Of a stretch of 16,193 nt of DNA, positions 57-14,777 are shown piece after piece (positions within the stretch are counted from its first letter, which is position 1; each line of letters starts with the position of its first letter). The position numbers were made by a program, and so were the translations under genes. The notes beneath the pieces are model-generated. The model worked only from the letters and a program-made list of their open reading frames with translations. It was not told the DNA's origin and did not search any database. Source of the stretch: a virus; UHGV virus genome UHGV-0197964. The stretch is one strand, 5' to 3'.

Positions 57-276
57 CAGCTAACTCCTTCGTGTATTTAGCATCAAGTGCATCAGCAGTA
101 CGCTGGCGCTGCTGCATGTCAGTAATGGTGGCAGTCGCCTGCTTCAGCTCACTGACTTTTTTATCGCGCTGCTCTTTGTAGGTCATGGCGTTATCACGGT
201 AATGATTAACAGCCCATGACAGGCAGACGATGATGCAGATAACCAGAGCGGAGATAATCGCGGTGACTCTGCTCAT
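1..276 (-). CDS. Rz: i-spanin Rz, N-terminal 92 codons (partial)
   Basis: ATG at 276-274 overlaps the R stop (ATGA); translation [29 protein letters not shown]... is an N-terminal TM helix then a charged coiled-coil region, closely matching lambda Rz. Confidence 0.85.
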
Positions 277-749
277 ACCTCAATCTCTCTGACCGTTCCG
301 CCTGCTTCTTTGAATTTTGCAATCAGGCTGTCAGCCTTATGCTCGAACTGACCATAACCAGCGCCAGGCAGTGAAGCCCAGATATTGCTGCAACGGTCGA
401 TAGCCTGACGAATATCACCGCGATCAATCATCGGTAAAGCGCCACGCTCTTTAATCTGTTGCAGTGCCACAGCGTCCTGGCTTTTCGGAGAGAAGTCTTT
501 CAGGCCAAGCTGCTTACGATAGGCATCCCACCAACGGGAAAGAAGCTGGTAACGTCCGGCGGCTGTTGATTTGAGTTTCGGATTTAGCGTGACAAGTTTG
601 CGGGGGTGATCGGAGTAATCAGTGAACAGCTCGCCACCGACAATAACATCATAACCGTGATTTCTGGTTTTCTGCCGTCCGTTATCTGTTCCTTCTGACC
701 ACGCCAGCATATCGAGGAACGCCTTACGTTGATTATTGATTTCCACCAT
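273..749 (-). CDS. R: endolysin, lambda R-type lytic transglycosylase
   Basis: 158 aa ORF, near-identical over its length to my recall of lambda R ([42 protein letters not shown]...). Confidence 0.95.
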
Positions 750-1056
750 CTTCTACTCCGGCTTTTTTAGCAGCGAAGCGTTTGATAAGCGAACCAATCG
801 AGTCAGTACCGATGTAGCCGATGAACACGCTTGTTATATAAGCGAGATTGCTACTTAGTCCGGCGAAGTCGAGAAGGTCACGAATGAACCAGGCGATAAT
901 GGCGCACATCGTTGCGTCGATTACTGTTTTTGTAAACGCACCGCCATTATATCTGCCGCGAAGGTACGCCATTGCAAACGCAAGGATTGCCCCGATGCCT
1001 TGTTCCTTTGCCGCGAGAATGGCGGCTAACAGGTCATGTTTTTCTGGCATCTTCAT
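733..1056 (-). CDS. S: holin S with dual start (Met1-Lys2-Met3, S107/S105 arrangement)
   Basis: 107 aa [35 protein letters not shown]... near-identical to lambda S; 17-nt overlap with R as in lambda. Confidence 0.95.
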
Positions 1057-1298
1057 GTCTTACCCCCAATAAGGGGATTTGCTCTATTTAATTAGGAATA
1101 AGGTCGATTACTGATAGAACAAATCCAGGCTACTGTGTTTAGTAATCAGATTTGTTCGTGACCGATATGCACGGGCAAAACGGCAGGAGGTTGTTAGCGC
1201 AACCTCTTGCCACCCGCTTTCACGAAGGTCATGTGTAGAAGGCCGCAGCGTAACTATCACTGATGAATCCAGGATAGCCAGTGGCTACGGCTCAGTTA

Positions 1299-1374
1299 TG
1301 GTGCTGGTTAACGGACTTGAACCGCTACCCATTCGCTTACAAGGCGACTGCTCTACCATTGGAGCTAAACCAGC
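1299..1374 (-). tRNA. tRNA-Thr (anticodon UGU)
   Basis: Manual cloverleaf: 76 nt, perfect 7-bp acceptor stem (GCUGGUU/AACCAGC), U8 A9, 4-bp D stem with GG in loop, anticodon loop CUUGUAA, T-loop UUCAAGU, discriminator A, encoded CCA. Confidence 0.8.
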
Positions 1375-1379
1375 ATATT

Positions 1380-1454
1380 TGGCGGGACAGCGTGGACTCG
1401 AACCACGATAAGAAGGTTAACAGCCTTCCGTAATGACCTTTATACGACTGACCC
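1380..1454 (-). tRNA. tRNA-Asn (anticodon GUU)-like, possibly degenerate
   Basis: 75 nt; 5-bp anticodon stem with loop CUGUUAA; perfect T arm CGUGG-UUCGAGU-CCACG; encoded CCA; but acceptor stem has one U-U mismatch and D arm is atypical. Confidence 0.5.
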
Positions 1455-1510
1455 AAATAAAAAAAGCCACCGTTGCAACTTAAGAGTCACTAACGGCAGC
1501 TTACCCTCTA

Positions 1511-1540
1511 ATTATGGCTAAATGGCTAATTGCATGTCAA
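1511..1540 (-). promoter_or_regulatory. candidate late promoter pR' (-35 TTGACA, 18-bp spacer, -10 CATAAT) overlapping the 3' end of Q
   Basis: Consensus -35 at 1540-1535 and -10 at 1516-1511 read on minus strand, just downstream of Q where the Q-modified late promoter is expected; a T7 run follows at 1457-1463. Confidence 0.5.
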
Positions 1541-2036
1541 GGCTTTTAACAGCAACATGCTTAACTTTCTCAACACGTTTACGCATTTTGAAAGCATTTT
1601 GCATTGGTTGGTACAAAACAAATAACGACGCTTTCAGGATGTCGTCAATTTCGTTTCTACAGGTTGCCAGTGAAGGCTTTCTCCATCCCTCGCCACCACG
1701 TCCACACATCTTGCGTGGCTTTGCAGTCGCGTGATAGTAGGATGCAATTGATCGCTTAGATGAACCATGAGCGTAGTAGCTGAGGAGGATTCCAAAGGCT
1801 TTCTTGTCAATGCACATGACGGAATCGACGACCTGAGAAATCAACATTCCATCATCATCATTACACATTGGCCTTGTCATAACTCTTCCCGGCTCTACGC
1901 TCTCCATGAACTTCGCTATTACGCTGCTCATGCGCTTTTCCAGACGACCTGAATAAACCCATGCGCCCCACAGTTCAAGCCAGCCATTCAGCCACTCGTG
2001 CTGCTCTTTGGTGAGGTTTAGTTCTCTTATGCTCAT
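1518..2036 (-). CDS. Q: late-gene antiterminator Q, phage-82/QuuD type
   Basis: 172 aa; WGAW motif and Cys/Asp-rich segment (RPMCNDDDGMLIS) aligning with recalled DLP12 QuuD; positioned between nin region and lysis genes; start overlaps ninH stop (ATGA). Confidence 0.8.
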   Translation of the reverse strand: MSIRELNLTKEQHEWLNGWLELWGAWVYSGRLEKRMSSVIAKFMESVEPGRVMTRPMCNDDDGMLISQVVDSVMCIDKKAFGILLSYYAHGSSKRSIASYYHATAKPRKMCGRGGEGWRKPSLATCRNEIDDILKASLFVLYQPMQNAFKMRKRVEKVKHVAVKSLDMQLAI

Positions 2037-2243: not shown

Positions 2244-2579
2244 TTATTCCAAGCCGTCCGCCTGGTACTTTCCACCACGAATTACGCGAATGTCATCGAA
2301 TTGCTCGTCGTCTTCCGCAAATCCGGCGTGGATAAGGGAATCGAGTAAACCTTTCAGGATGTTGTCGAGGTCGCGGCGGCGGGAGTCTGGAACGTCTGCG
2401 ATGACTTTGATGCGGAGTCGTGATTTGGTGAAAATGTCTAACTTAAGTTGGCGGATGATTTGCTGAACGTCTTTTCGGTATTTCTGGCCTTTATCGCTTA
2501 TGTAATATTGGCTTCCCCGTCTTCGCCAGTAGGTATTCACCGACGGCGGGTATGGAAGCACAAACTGATATTCGTTCAT
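2244..2579 (-). CDS. rusA: RusA-family Holliday junction resolvase
   Basis: 111 aa with the RusA catalytic-region motif PDSRRRDLDN; start overlaps YbcO-like stop (ATGA). Confidence 0.8.
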   Translation of the reverse strand: MNEYQFVLPYPPSVNTYWRRRGSQYYISDKGQKYRKDVQQIIRQLKLDIFTKSRLRIKVIADVPDSRRRDLDNILKGLLDSLIHAGFAEDDEQFDDIRVIRGGKYQADGLE

Positions 2580-12861: not shown

Positions 12862-12998
12862 CCATCAATCACCAGATGCTTCGTGCTGCACAGAACAAAG
12901 CAGTAATAGCCAGATTTATTGGTGATTCAAAAATGTGGCTTGAAGCAAATAAAGCGATGAAATCAGCTATCAACCTTCCGTGGTATCGCAGGAAATGA
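12846..12998 (+). CDS. kil: Kil-like small protein
   Basis: 50 aa by manual translation; IARFIGDSKMWLEA resembles recalled lambda Kil (IATFIGDEKMFREA); overlaps cIII end. Confidence 0.55.
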   Translation: MRNEIAINHQMLRAAQNKAVIARFIGDSKMWLEANKAMKSAINLPWYRRK

Positions 12999-13073
12999 GT
13001 TTTACAGATAACTGGTCAGACGAAGAATTCATTCGTCAGATGAAAGAATTAATCGGTAACGAAGGAGATATTC

Positions 13074-13247
13074 ATGTCACTTGCAACCACAGTGAAGGAG
13101 AGCAAGTTACAGAGACGCATGTACACGCAGAAAGCTCTCTGGTATCGCCATAATGGTGACCGCGAAGGAATGCGGGTATGCCTTAATTTGTCCCGAGTCG
13201 AAGTATTAAATCAGCGTTATTTCCTTGGGCCGTGTCCATTCTGAGGT
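13074..13247 (+). CDS. small basic hypothetical protein (57 aa), positionally equivalent to P22 arf
   Basis: ATG with AAGGAG 8 nt upstream; ends 6 nt before the annealing-protein gene; competes with overlapping 12995-13153 ORF. Confidence 0.4.
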
Positions 13248-14480: not shown

Positions 14481-14777
14481 ATGCCAGCGCCTCAGTATGG
14501 TGCGGATGACCCGCGCCGCTGTTCCGGCAATTCCGTATCGGAGGTGCTGGATAAATTCAGGAAAAACTACGACCGGATAATGTCGCTACCGCAGGAAACG
14601 AAAGAGGAAAAGGAATTTCGCCATTGTATATGGCTTGCAGAGAAAGAAGAACGCGAGCGAATTTACCAGACATCAATCCGACCATTCCGCAAAGCCACAT
14701 ATACCAACTTCCCTGAATATATCGACCCGCGCCTGCGTAATTACCGCTCACGCTATGGCGCTATCAGTAATGACTGA
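14481..14777 (+). CDS. hypothetical protein (98 aa)
   Basis: ATG 13 nt after ssb stop; no motif recognised. Confidence 0.5.

Follow-up and report, generated by a model that had tools for sequence, protein, structure and literature searches.

The window, by which we mean the whole 16,193-nt stretch of viral DNA analysed here and from which all coordinates are taken, carries two tRNA genes in the late leader of a prophage, one for tRNA-Asn(GUU) and one for tRNA-Thr(UGU), and these correspond to the already known and long-annotated Asn/Thr cassette of phages 21, Sf6, HK446 and BTP1. The pair has been annotated since the Sf6 genome and is now called routinely by PGAP, and the function of its Thr member was published in 2025-2026. 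We consider it probable that the two genes form a functional cassette in which the Thr tRNA serves as a substitute that resists the P2 Old nuclease, an activity demonstrated in trans by others, and in which the Asn tRNA probably acts in a similar manner or supplies extra decoding capacity. Neither the existing annotation nor the published counter-defence activity of an identical Thr tRNA had been recognized in the original prediction for this locus, which was made from the sequence alone.

Organization of the late leader and its tRNA genes

The genes neighbouring the pair point to a P22-like (Lederbergvirus-type) prophage. The tRNAs and the late-operon features are all read on the minus strand, and they are given here in the order of transcription, each with the evidence by which it was assigned:

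1518-2036, minus strand: late antiterminator Q, 172 aa, of the phage 21/82 type (open reading frame; Pfam PF06530 Phage_antitermQ, E 1.4e-25)
1511-1540, minus strand: late promoter pR' (promoter scan, 11/12 consensus positions matched)
1455-1502, minus strand: tR', the intrinsic terminator of the late leader (RNA folding; identity to the annotated phage 21 and Sf6 terminators)
1380-1454, minus strand: tRNA-Asn(GUU), 75 nt, with encoded CCA and G73 (ARAGORN; Rfam 55.3 bits)
1375-1379, minus strand: spacer AAUAU, 5 nt, between the tRNAs (sequence reading)
1299-1374, minus strand: tRNA-Thr(UGU), 76 nt, with encoded CCA and A73 (ARAGORN; Rfam 61.5 bits)
1057-1298, minus strand: structured leader from tRNA-Thr to the start of S, 242 nt (RNA fold -90 kcal/mol, z -6.6)
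733-1056, minus strand: holin S, 107 aa, lambda family (PF05106, E 2.4e-30; PGAP annotation)
273-749, minus strand: R (open reading frame)

The original prediction had described a Thr(UGU) and an Asn(GUU) gene lying 5 nt apart on the lysis-gene strand, in the late leader between Q and S and downstream of a consensus-like promoter that overlaps the Q stop, and all of these assignments held. ARAGORN, which had been named as a check, was run over the entire window and returned exactly two tRNAs with the anticodons stated, Thr(tgt) at 1299-1374 and Asn(gtt) at 1380-1454. The Rfam tRNA model RF00005 agrees, with 61.5 bits (E 1.8e-11) for tRNA-Thr and 55.3 bits (E 8.5e-10) for tRNA-Asn against a gathering score of 29 and with alignments spanning model positions 1-71 of 71 for both; both scores are far above chance, and the two genes are genuine tRNA genes. 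Across positions 700-2100, an Rfam scan at E<1 returned only the two tRNAs and one chance match to a snoRNA. The genes lie on the minus strand, as do Q, S and R, and the 5-nt spacer occupies 1379-1375, where the junction reads ...CUGUCCC-G-CCA-AAUAU-GCUGGUU... on that strand. The pair is flanked on one side by an antiterminator of the Q21 family (PF06530), whose counterpart in an identical prophage is labelled 'antiterminator Q family protein' by PGAP and whose Sf6 homologue is annotated as 'similar to phage 21 Q', and on the other by the lambda-family holin S, which is the first protein-coding gene of the late operon.

The promoter combines a -35 element TTGACA (1540-1535), an 18-nt spacer and a -10 element CATAAT (1516-1511), and the Q stop codon TAG (1520-1518) falls inside it. 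Also within the promoter is a QBE-like direct repeat, ATTAGCCA/TTTAGCCA, at 1530-1515; the QBE of phage 21, the repeat ATTGAGCA/AATGAGCA, occupies the equivalent position, and the homologous site in Sf6 is annotated P R'. The terminator tR' consists of a hairpin at 1502-1464 followed by a U7AUUU tail, UUUUUUUAUUU, and ends one base before the 5' end of tRNA-Asn. It folds at -21.1 kcal/mol (z -4.48), with none of 200 shuffles being equally stable, and it was recovered by RNA folding, the hairpin lying outside the rules of a rule-based terminator scan that did not flag it. This hairpin between the promoter and tRNA-Asn had gone unmentioned in the original prediction. On the far side of the pair, the structured leader at 1057-1298 contains a further hairpin at 1211-1182, followed by GUUUUGCC, and matches no Rfam family even at E<1.

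Given this anatomy and the annotations of phages 21 and Sf6, transcription would start at pR' approximately 7 nt past the -10 element, near position 1504. Without Q, transcripts would be expected to end at tR', and with Q acting at the QBE-like repeat, or with leakage through tR', readthrough would extend transcription past the tRNA pair to S-R-Rz and on to the virion genes. Release of the tRNAs would then fall to RNase P and 3' processing enzymes of the host, with no need for CCA addition, as CCA is encoded. A pointer to expression comes from phage BTP1, whose tRNAs are 99.4% identical to the window pair: the BTP1 transcriptome paper explicitly excluded the two tRNA genes from its list of five BTP1 genes with TPM>100 in lysogen RNA-seq, an exclusion that hints at a high tRNA signal or accumulation.

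Both tRNAs possess the features expected of functional molecules. Their anticodon loops, CUGUUAA in tRNA-Asn and CUUGUAA in tRNA-Thr, are canonical in having 7 nt, U33 and a purine at position 37, both D loops contain GG, and the T loops UUCGAGU and UUCAAGU are of the UUCRANY form. The sole exception among these loop checks is C14 of tRNA-Thr, which replaces a near-universal A. In E. coli, AsnRS recognizes the identity elements G34, U35, U36 and G73, and ThrRS recognizes G1-C72, C2-G71, G35 and U36. All of these elements are present in the window Asn and Thr sequences, respectively, tRNA-Thr carrying both G1-C72 and C2-G71, and as judged from sequence both tRNAs should be chargeable in E. coli.

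Departures from the consensus are found in both genes. The acceptor-stem mismatch and odd D arm previously ascribed to tRNA-Asn are indeed there: the acceptor stem contains U4·U69, the D stem (GUAU/UUAC) contains U13·U22, and C9 is a further oddity; the anticodon stem of this tRNA includes an A28-U42 pair. The accompanying contrast between a well-formed Thr and an odd Asn gene is misleading, however, since tRNA-Thr bears oddities that have been functionally characterized, namely a G27·A43 mismatch, which leaves a 4-bp anticodon stem, and a U28-A42 pair, in addition to G39 and C14.

Distribution and conservation of the pair

From the end of Q to the start of S, a distance of 521 nt, the window is 98.5% identical to Shigella phage Sf6 and 100% identical to prophages of E. 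coli strains EC11 and MS14385, and PGAP annotates both tRNAs in the identical E. coli prophages. A three-way alignment with phage 21 and Sf6 shows that both tRNAs are 100% identical in the three phages, that only one spacer base differs (AAUAU in the window vs AACAU in phage 21 and Sf6), and that the tR' hairpin is likewise identical. HK446, mEp506, Kapi1 and Bas106 share the complete 156-nt pair at 100% identity, and in SfI, as in BTP1, the identity is 99.4%; for Bas106, the text of the BASEL paper makes no statement on Old or on tRNAs. The pair is present in 369 of 5,426 complete E. coli genomes, and among 375 matching E. coli records 262 are at least 99% identical to it. About 7% of complete E. 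coli genomes harbour lambdoid or P22-like prophages with exactly this pair.

In this mosaic unit, the pair represents the conserved core. The promoter preceding it is of the Q21 type in the window and phage 21, whereas HK446 has a lambda-type Q/pR' there, and the similarity of HK446 to the window sets in at about position 1464, where the U-tract immediately before tRNA-Asn begins. The lysis cassettes that follow the pair vary too, phage 21 having the S21 pinholin where the window, Sf6 and HK446 all have lambda S. That other lambdoid phages use this slot for tRNAs, as had been proposed, is borne out for lambdoid and P22-like phages by the Sf6 and phage 21 annotations and by a published account in which some P22-like phages have tRNAs at the late-leader position, with Sf6 Asn and Thr cited as the example (PMC8022706).

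In IMG/VR, at least 120 loci were found to carry Asn(GUU) and Thr(UGU) genes in tandem, and among the matches listed at least 51 were of the window type, each with just two called tRNAs. In the same listed matches, 43 of 53 family copies of tRNA-Asn were identical to one another, and the 11 distinct variants displayed a consistent pattern: pairs 6:67, 7:66 and 28:42 changed on both sides, positions 4:69 and 13:22 remained unpaired in all 11, and the T arm, anticodon loop and CCA were invariant, with G73 altered in one. A relative that is only 69% identical in its Asn sequence and has a canonical D arm nevertheless retains the GGGUCAG/CUGUCCC acceptor stem. The Thr family mismatch is equally stable, G27·A43 being found in 15/15 family variants, whereas three more distant relatives have a normal C27-G43 pair. 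The sample is small and its members closely related, which makes the covariation supportive rather than strong: no shuffle among 500 reached the score of tRNA-Asn, with its three compensatory pairs, and the same was true (0/500) for 18 variants of tRNA-Thr, in which 95.5% of cells were paired and six pairs showed compensatory change.

These patterns bear on the earlier suggestion that the Asn copy may be decaying, and on a fuller version of it in which the gene is a pseudo-tRNA hitch-hiking beside a functional Thr gene. The acceptor U·U, U13·U22 and C9 could be read in this way, as could the lower Rfam score of tRNA-Asn relative to tRNA-Thr, and the slot evidently permits decay, as exemplified by phages L and ST64T, whose second tRNA has degenerated to a 72-nt 'Leu(UAA)' with C33. 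Yet the Asn sequence is identical across phages of Escherichia, Shigella and Salmonella, including phage 21, Sf6 and HK446, and most of the listed copies do not vary at all. The fixation of both mismatches in every listed variant, the compensatory pairs elsewhere in the molecule and the retention of the mismatched acceptor stem in the 69%-identical relative together identify the mismatches as fixed features and not as erosion. The suggestion of decay was not upheld, and we regard it as very improbable.

The Thr tRNA and the P2 Old nuclease

During P2-lambda interference, host tRNA-Thr(UGU) is cut by P2 Old, an ABC-ATPase/Toprim tRNase, and this cleavage is what kills (Govande et al. 2025, PMC12445682). 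The cuts fall 3' to the C in paired CNG motifs (positions 28-30 and 40-42) and result in loss of the anticodon arm, and phage-encoded Thr(UGU) tRNAs rescue; among these, tRNA-Thr21 of phage 21 protects by virtue of a shorter anticodon stem and the substitutions C28U/G42A, both kinds of change being required for resistance (PMC12445682). The nuclease HepS of Gifsy-1 also targets Thr(UGU), as a secondary target that is cut in the anticodon loop.

The window Thr tRNA was equated with the tested tRNA-Thr21 through the phage 21 genome record and the substitutions described for it. Its anticodon arm is GUCGC/GCGAA vs ACUGA/UCAGU in the host, and positions 28-30/40-42 are UCG/CGA vs CUG/CAG, with no CNG on either strand. 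The sequence features of an Old-resistant Thr tRNA are accordingly all found in this gene: the UGU anticodon, the altered CNG motifs and a stem shortened by the 27:43 mismatch. In the mechanism we propose, the window Thr tRNA would act as a nuclease-resistant stand-in for host tRNA-ThrU; with an arm that is devoid of paired CNG motifs and shortened by G27·A43, it would be spared by P2 Old and would allow ACA to be read despite loss of the host copy.

Experiments reported by others speak directly to this mechanism. The HK446 Thr(UGU) tRNA, supplied in trans, restored plaquing of the Old-sensitive phages HK97, HK542 and Bas34 to near wild-type levels (Derzhaev et al. 2026 preprint), and the phage Thr tRNA decodes ACA in vivo in published rescue experiments (PMC12445682). 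Overexpression of host tRNA-ThrU failed to rescue where the phage tRNA did so (PMC12445682; Derzhaev et al. 2026 preprint). Other results in the same preprint argue against a counter-defence role: viral Thr(UGU) alone rescued neither lambda nor Old toxicity in recB cells, and the escape of HK446 from Old is credited to the Oad2 protein and not to the tRNA. Additionally, the tRNAs lie downstream of tR' and are expected late, whereas Old is triggered early, by RecBCD inhibitors or origin hairpins.

The gene content of the window prophage is of interest in this regard. A 57-aa protein encoded at 12980-13153 is 88% identical to HK446 Gp33, which is reported to be a trigger of Old (Derzhaev et al. 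2026 preprint), and Abc2, at 14481-14777, is 95% identical to its HK446 counterpart. Searches of the window and of approximately 43 kb of the identical MS14385 prophage revealed no homologue of Oad2 (HK446 gp27), the inhibitor of Old. Judging from these genes, the window phage would provoke Old without supplying a protein inhibitor, and the presence of the Gp33 homologue together with the absence of Oad2 would give a resistant tRNA greater relevance here than in HK446.

A competing explanation is that the pair functions in codon supplementation only, supplying tRNAs for the ACA and AAC/AAU codons so frequent in the late genes and thereby accelerating the production of virion proteins, with no link to defence. 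The comparison of late-gene codons that the original prediction had recommended gave a divided answer. The identical prophage uses ACA 14.1 times per 1000 codons in its late genes vs 5.2 times in a 50-kb K-12 sample, a 2.7-fold enrichment, and Asn codons are enriched as well, at 5.2% of late-gene codons vs 3.5% in the K-12 sample; however, AGA (7.1-fold), AGG (6.4-fold) and TCA (2.9-fold) all outrank ACA, yet the phage carries no matching tRNAs. Background on the host is similarly double-edged: E. coli thrU is a single-copy gene whose tRNA is of low abundance, but E. coli has four asn tRNA genes, and Asn supply is not obviously limiting. In phage L, AAC accounts for 24/25 of the Asn codons of the capsid gene, and supplementation of the tRNA pool has been proposed (PMC8022706). 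What codon supply leaves unexplained is the fixed, shortened and CNG-free anticodon arm of the Thr family, and it is also at odds with the failure of overexpressed host tRNA-ThrU to rescue where the phage tRNA succeeded. As the only function of the pair we judge it somewhat unlikely; as a secondary role it is compatible with, and not exclusive of, counter-defence.

Many temperate phages integrate in tRNA genes, and phage-borne tRNAs might compensate for a host tRNA gene disrupted by prophage integration. Such compensation was suggested for HK446 Thr (Derzhaev et al. 2026 preprint), but the HK446 attP resembles thrW, which encodes Thr(CGU) and not UGU, and a P22-type attP restores thrW upon integration (PMC8022706). 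In MS14385, moreover, the integrase of the identical prophage adjoins sbcB, with no tRNA gene annotated at the junction. A late leader behind a terminator is the wrong site for constitutive expression in a lysogen, and the Asn partner would be left without explanation, all of which makes this account hardly credible to us. Alternatively, the main role of the tRNAs might be to punctuate RNA processing: cuts by RNase P and RNase E would detach the pR' leader and leave the late mRNA with a defined, stable 5' end, and decoding would be incidental. The position of the tRNAs, exactly between tR' and the highly structured 242-nt leader (z -6.6), would suit such a role, and excision of the tRNAs from the late mRNA is stated to be not known (PMC8022706). 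Against it, lambda and P22 express a similar late operon without tRNAs (PMC8022706), punctuation would not keep anticodons, identity elements and CCA intact across the family, and the Thr tRNA does decode in vivo in the published rescue. We therefore consider punctuation improbable and favour a functional cassette with an Old-resistant Thr tRNA.

The Asn partner and comparison with known systems

The Asn partner has so far been overlooked in the published literature; the preprint describes the HK446 tRNA as 'a single' resistant one, although an identical Asn gene lies 5 nt upstream of it in HK446. A possible role for this gene is suggested by the PARIS system, whose nuclease AriB has three main targets, Lys(UUU), Thr(UGU) and, secondarily, Asn(GUU) (Belukhina et al. 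2025, PMC12409363). AriB cuts U36AAUC/A41, between C40 and A41, with U39 being critical, and the Lys, Thr and Asn variants of phage T5 jointly neutralize PARIS (PMC12409363). At the AriB site, tRNA-Thr reads UAAGCG in the window, UAAUCA in the host and UAAGCA in T5, and tRNA-Asn reads UAACCU, UAAUCC and UAAGUU, respectively. U39 is absent from both window tRNAs, replaced by G39 in Thr and C39 in Asn, and position 41 differs as well. With respect to Old, the host tRNA-Asn carries CNG on both strands (CGG/CCG) where the window Asn has AAG/CUU, and host tRNA-Asn was included in an in vitro comparison of P2-OLD kinetics in which tRNA-ThrU was cut fastest (PMC12445682).

How much weight these differences can bear depends on how common they are. 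Among 361 distinct phage tRNAs from the matches listed, 72% share the absence of U39 and 62% are without CNG on both strands, which makes the sequence argument for the Asn tRNA weak; a 27:43 mismatch such as that of tRNA-Thr is uncommon, at 14% of the same set. Three close relatives of the Asn tRNA (d95a, d95b and d89) have C28-G42 and hence a CNG motif. Finally, no Lys(UUU) tRNA was found in the window or in the at least 51 IMG/VR loci with the same Asn sequence, and since Lys(UUU) is the primary AriB target, the pair alone cannot neutralize B185 PARIS: of the full set of Lys, Thr and Asn, only Asn and Thr are represented.

Most likely, the Asn tRNA does for a second target of OLD-type nucleases what the Thr tRNA does for the first; alternatively, it may just add decoding capacity for late proteins rich in Asn and in ACA-encoded residues. 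A more specific proposal, which we advance tentatively and hold to be less than an even chance, is that the pair is a dedicated two-gene cassette directed against OLD-family Toprim tRNases, including P2 Old, PARIS AriB and their relatives. Genes for these tRNases are found in P2-like prophages and in P4-like satellites, which are competitors of lambdoid and P22-like phages in the same hosts, and under this proposal U4·U69, U13·U22, A28-U42 and C39 of the Asn tRNA would be adaptations for nuclease evasion, in the same way as G27·A43 and U28-A42 of the Thr tRNA. The pair covers two of the three tRNAs depleted by OLD-family Toprim nucleases, and if the proposal is correct it would constitute the main route of escape in prophages that have Gp33 but no Oad2.

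The system most similar to that of the window is phage 21 (OL657228, 39591-39746), which has both tRNAs, the tR' hairpin and the same position between terminator and holin, and whose tRNA-Thr21 has the anticodon-arm features, a shorter stem and C28U/G42A, that are present in the window Thr. The two phages differ in the Q protein and in the QBE between the -35 and -10 elements, and in their lysis cassettes, the window having lambda S/R where phage 21 has the S21 pinholin and a SAR endolysin. Sf6 (AF547987) presents the same order of P R', qut, t R', tRNA-Asn and tRNA-Thr, all annotated and described as 'similar to phage 21'; it is a free Shigella phage with a few point differences, whereas the window matches E. 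coli prophages. HK446 belongs to the HK97-like siphoviruses, its Q and pR' are of the lambda type, and it encodes the Old inhibitor Oad2, which the window prophage does not; its GenBank record is without tRNA annotation, the preprint mentioning a single tRNA. T5 is a virulent phage with some 24 tRNAs, including the key Lys(UUU); its Thr and Asn tRNAs have the same anticodons as those of the window and both lose U39 beside the AriB cut site, but the sequences are unrelated beyond the tRNA fold. A further parallel is found in Stx phages, e.g. 933W, in which ileZ-argN-argO lie upstream of stx in the slot after Q/pR'/tR' and before the lysis genes. Expression of these tRNAs is Q-dependent, their anticodons serve rare Ile and Arg codons, and they have classically been read as codon supplementation for stx and the late genes; the slot is thus equivalent to that of the window pair, and the anticodons are different.

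The Asn-Thr tandem and altered Thr genes in relatives

The tandem arrangement of the Asn(GUU) and Thr(UGU) tRNAs turns up in several viral-contig families with unrelated sequences among the IMG/VR loci retrieved (L006-L125). Outside the family of the window's own pair, at least 28 of these loci carry these two tRNAs only and at least 11 more carry three, the third usually being tRNA-Met(CAU), frequencies that are biased by a search pattern that itself selected for tandem Asn-Thr. Phage HK446 also carries the pair, at 35097-35252 of its GenBank record (NC_019714; 21098-21253 of the fetched locus), where it is left without annotation.

In some relatives the Thr gene is altered. Two IMG/VR contigs, L017 (about 1215-1290) and L063, carry a chimeric Thr gene that is of the window type in its 5' half and resembles the E. 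coli host gene thrU from position 26 onward; the thrU-like part includes the UAAUCA arm that is sensitive to the tRNases Old and AriB. ARAGORN made no call for this chimeric gene, which is followed by tRNA-Gly(UCC) and looks like the product of recombination within the tRNA gene. In phage L (881-952 of its locus), and likewise in ST64T, the pair's second member is a "tRNA-Leu(UAA)" of 72 nt. Its acceptor stem is still of the Thr type, position 33 is C, and the long variable arm that real Leu tRNAs possess is missing; this is a Thr gene that has either degenerated or undergone a shift of its anticodon.

Position 14 of tRNA-Thr and the nuclease context

In nearly all tRNAs, position 14 is an A that partners with U8. 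The window's tRNA-Thr has C at this position (1361, - strand), which varies among C, U and G inside the family, and more distant relatives have a canonical AGUUGG D loop. Because contacts with D-loop positions 16-17 have been proposed for AriB, the PARIS nuclease, the region around position 14 may be relevant to nuclease evasion.

Two further window genes have close counterparts in HK446:

12980-13153, + strand: Gp33-like ORF of 57 aa, 88% identical to HK446 Gp33
14481-14777, + strand: Abc2 anti-RecBCD protein, 95% identical to HK446 gp30

HK446 Gp33 is a trigger of the P2 Old tRNase according to a 2026 preprint. A search of the window and of ~43 kb of the identical prophage of E. coli MS14385 turned up nothing homologous to Oad2 (HK446 gp27), the inhibitor of Old. 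In that prophage, PGAP flags a frameshift in the RusA-family Holliday junction resolvase (L002 13982-14343, corresponding to the window 2244-2579 region), which suggests that at least one nin-region gene is inactivated.

Leader RNA and the late promoter

Two further elements lie on either side of the pair:

1057-1298, - strand: 242-nt leader from tRNA-Thr to the S start codon, analyzed by RNA folding
1515-1530, - strand: direct repeat ATTAGCCA/TTTAGCCA between the -35 and -10 of pR'

The leader adopts a predicted fold of unusual strength (-90 kcal/mol, z -6.6) and had no Rfam family matches; within it, a 12-bp hairpin (1211-1182, - strand) followed by GUUUUGCC resembles a weak terminator. The pR' repeat occupies the same position as the Q-binding element of phage 21, ATTGAGCA/AATGAGCA, but differs from it in sequence, which suggests that the window's Q is a member of the phage 21 family whose DNA specificity is unlike that of phage 21 Q.
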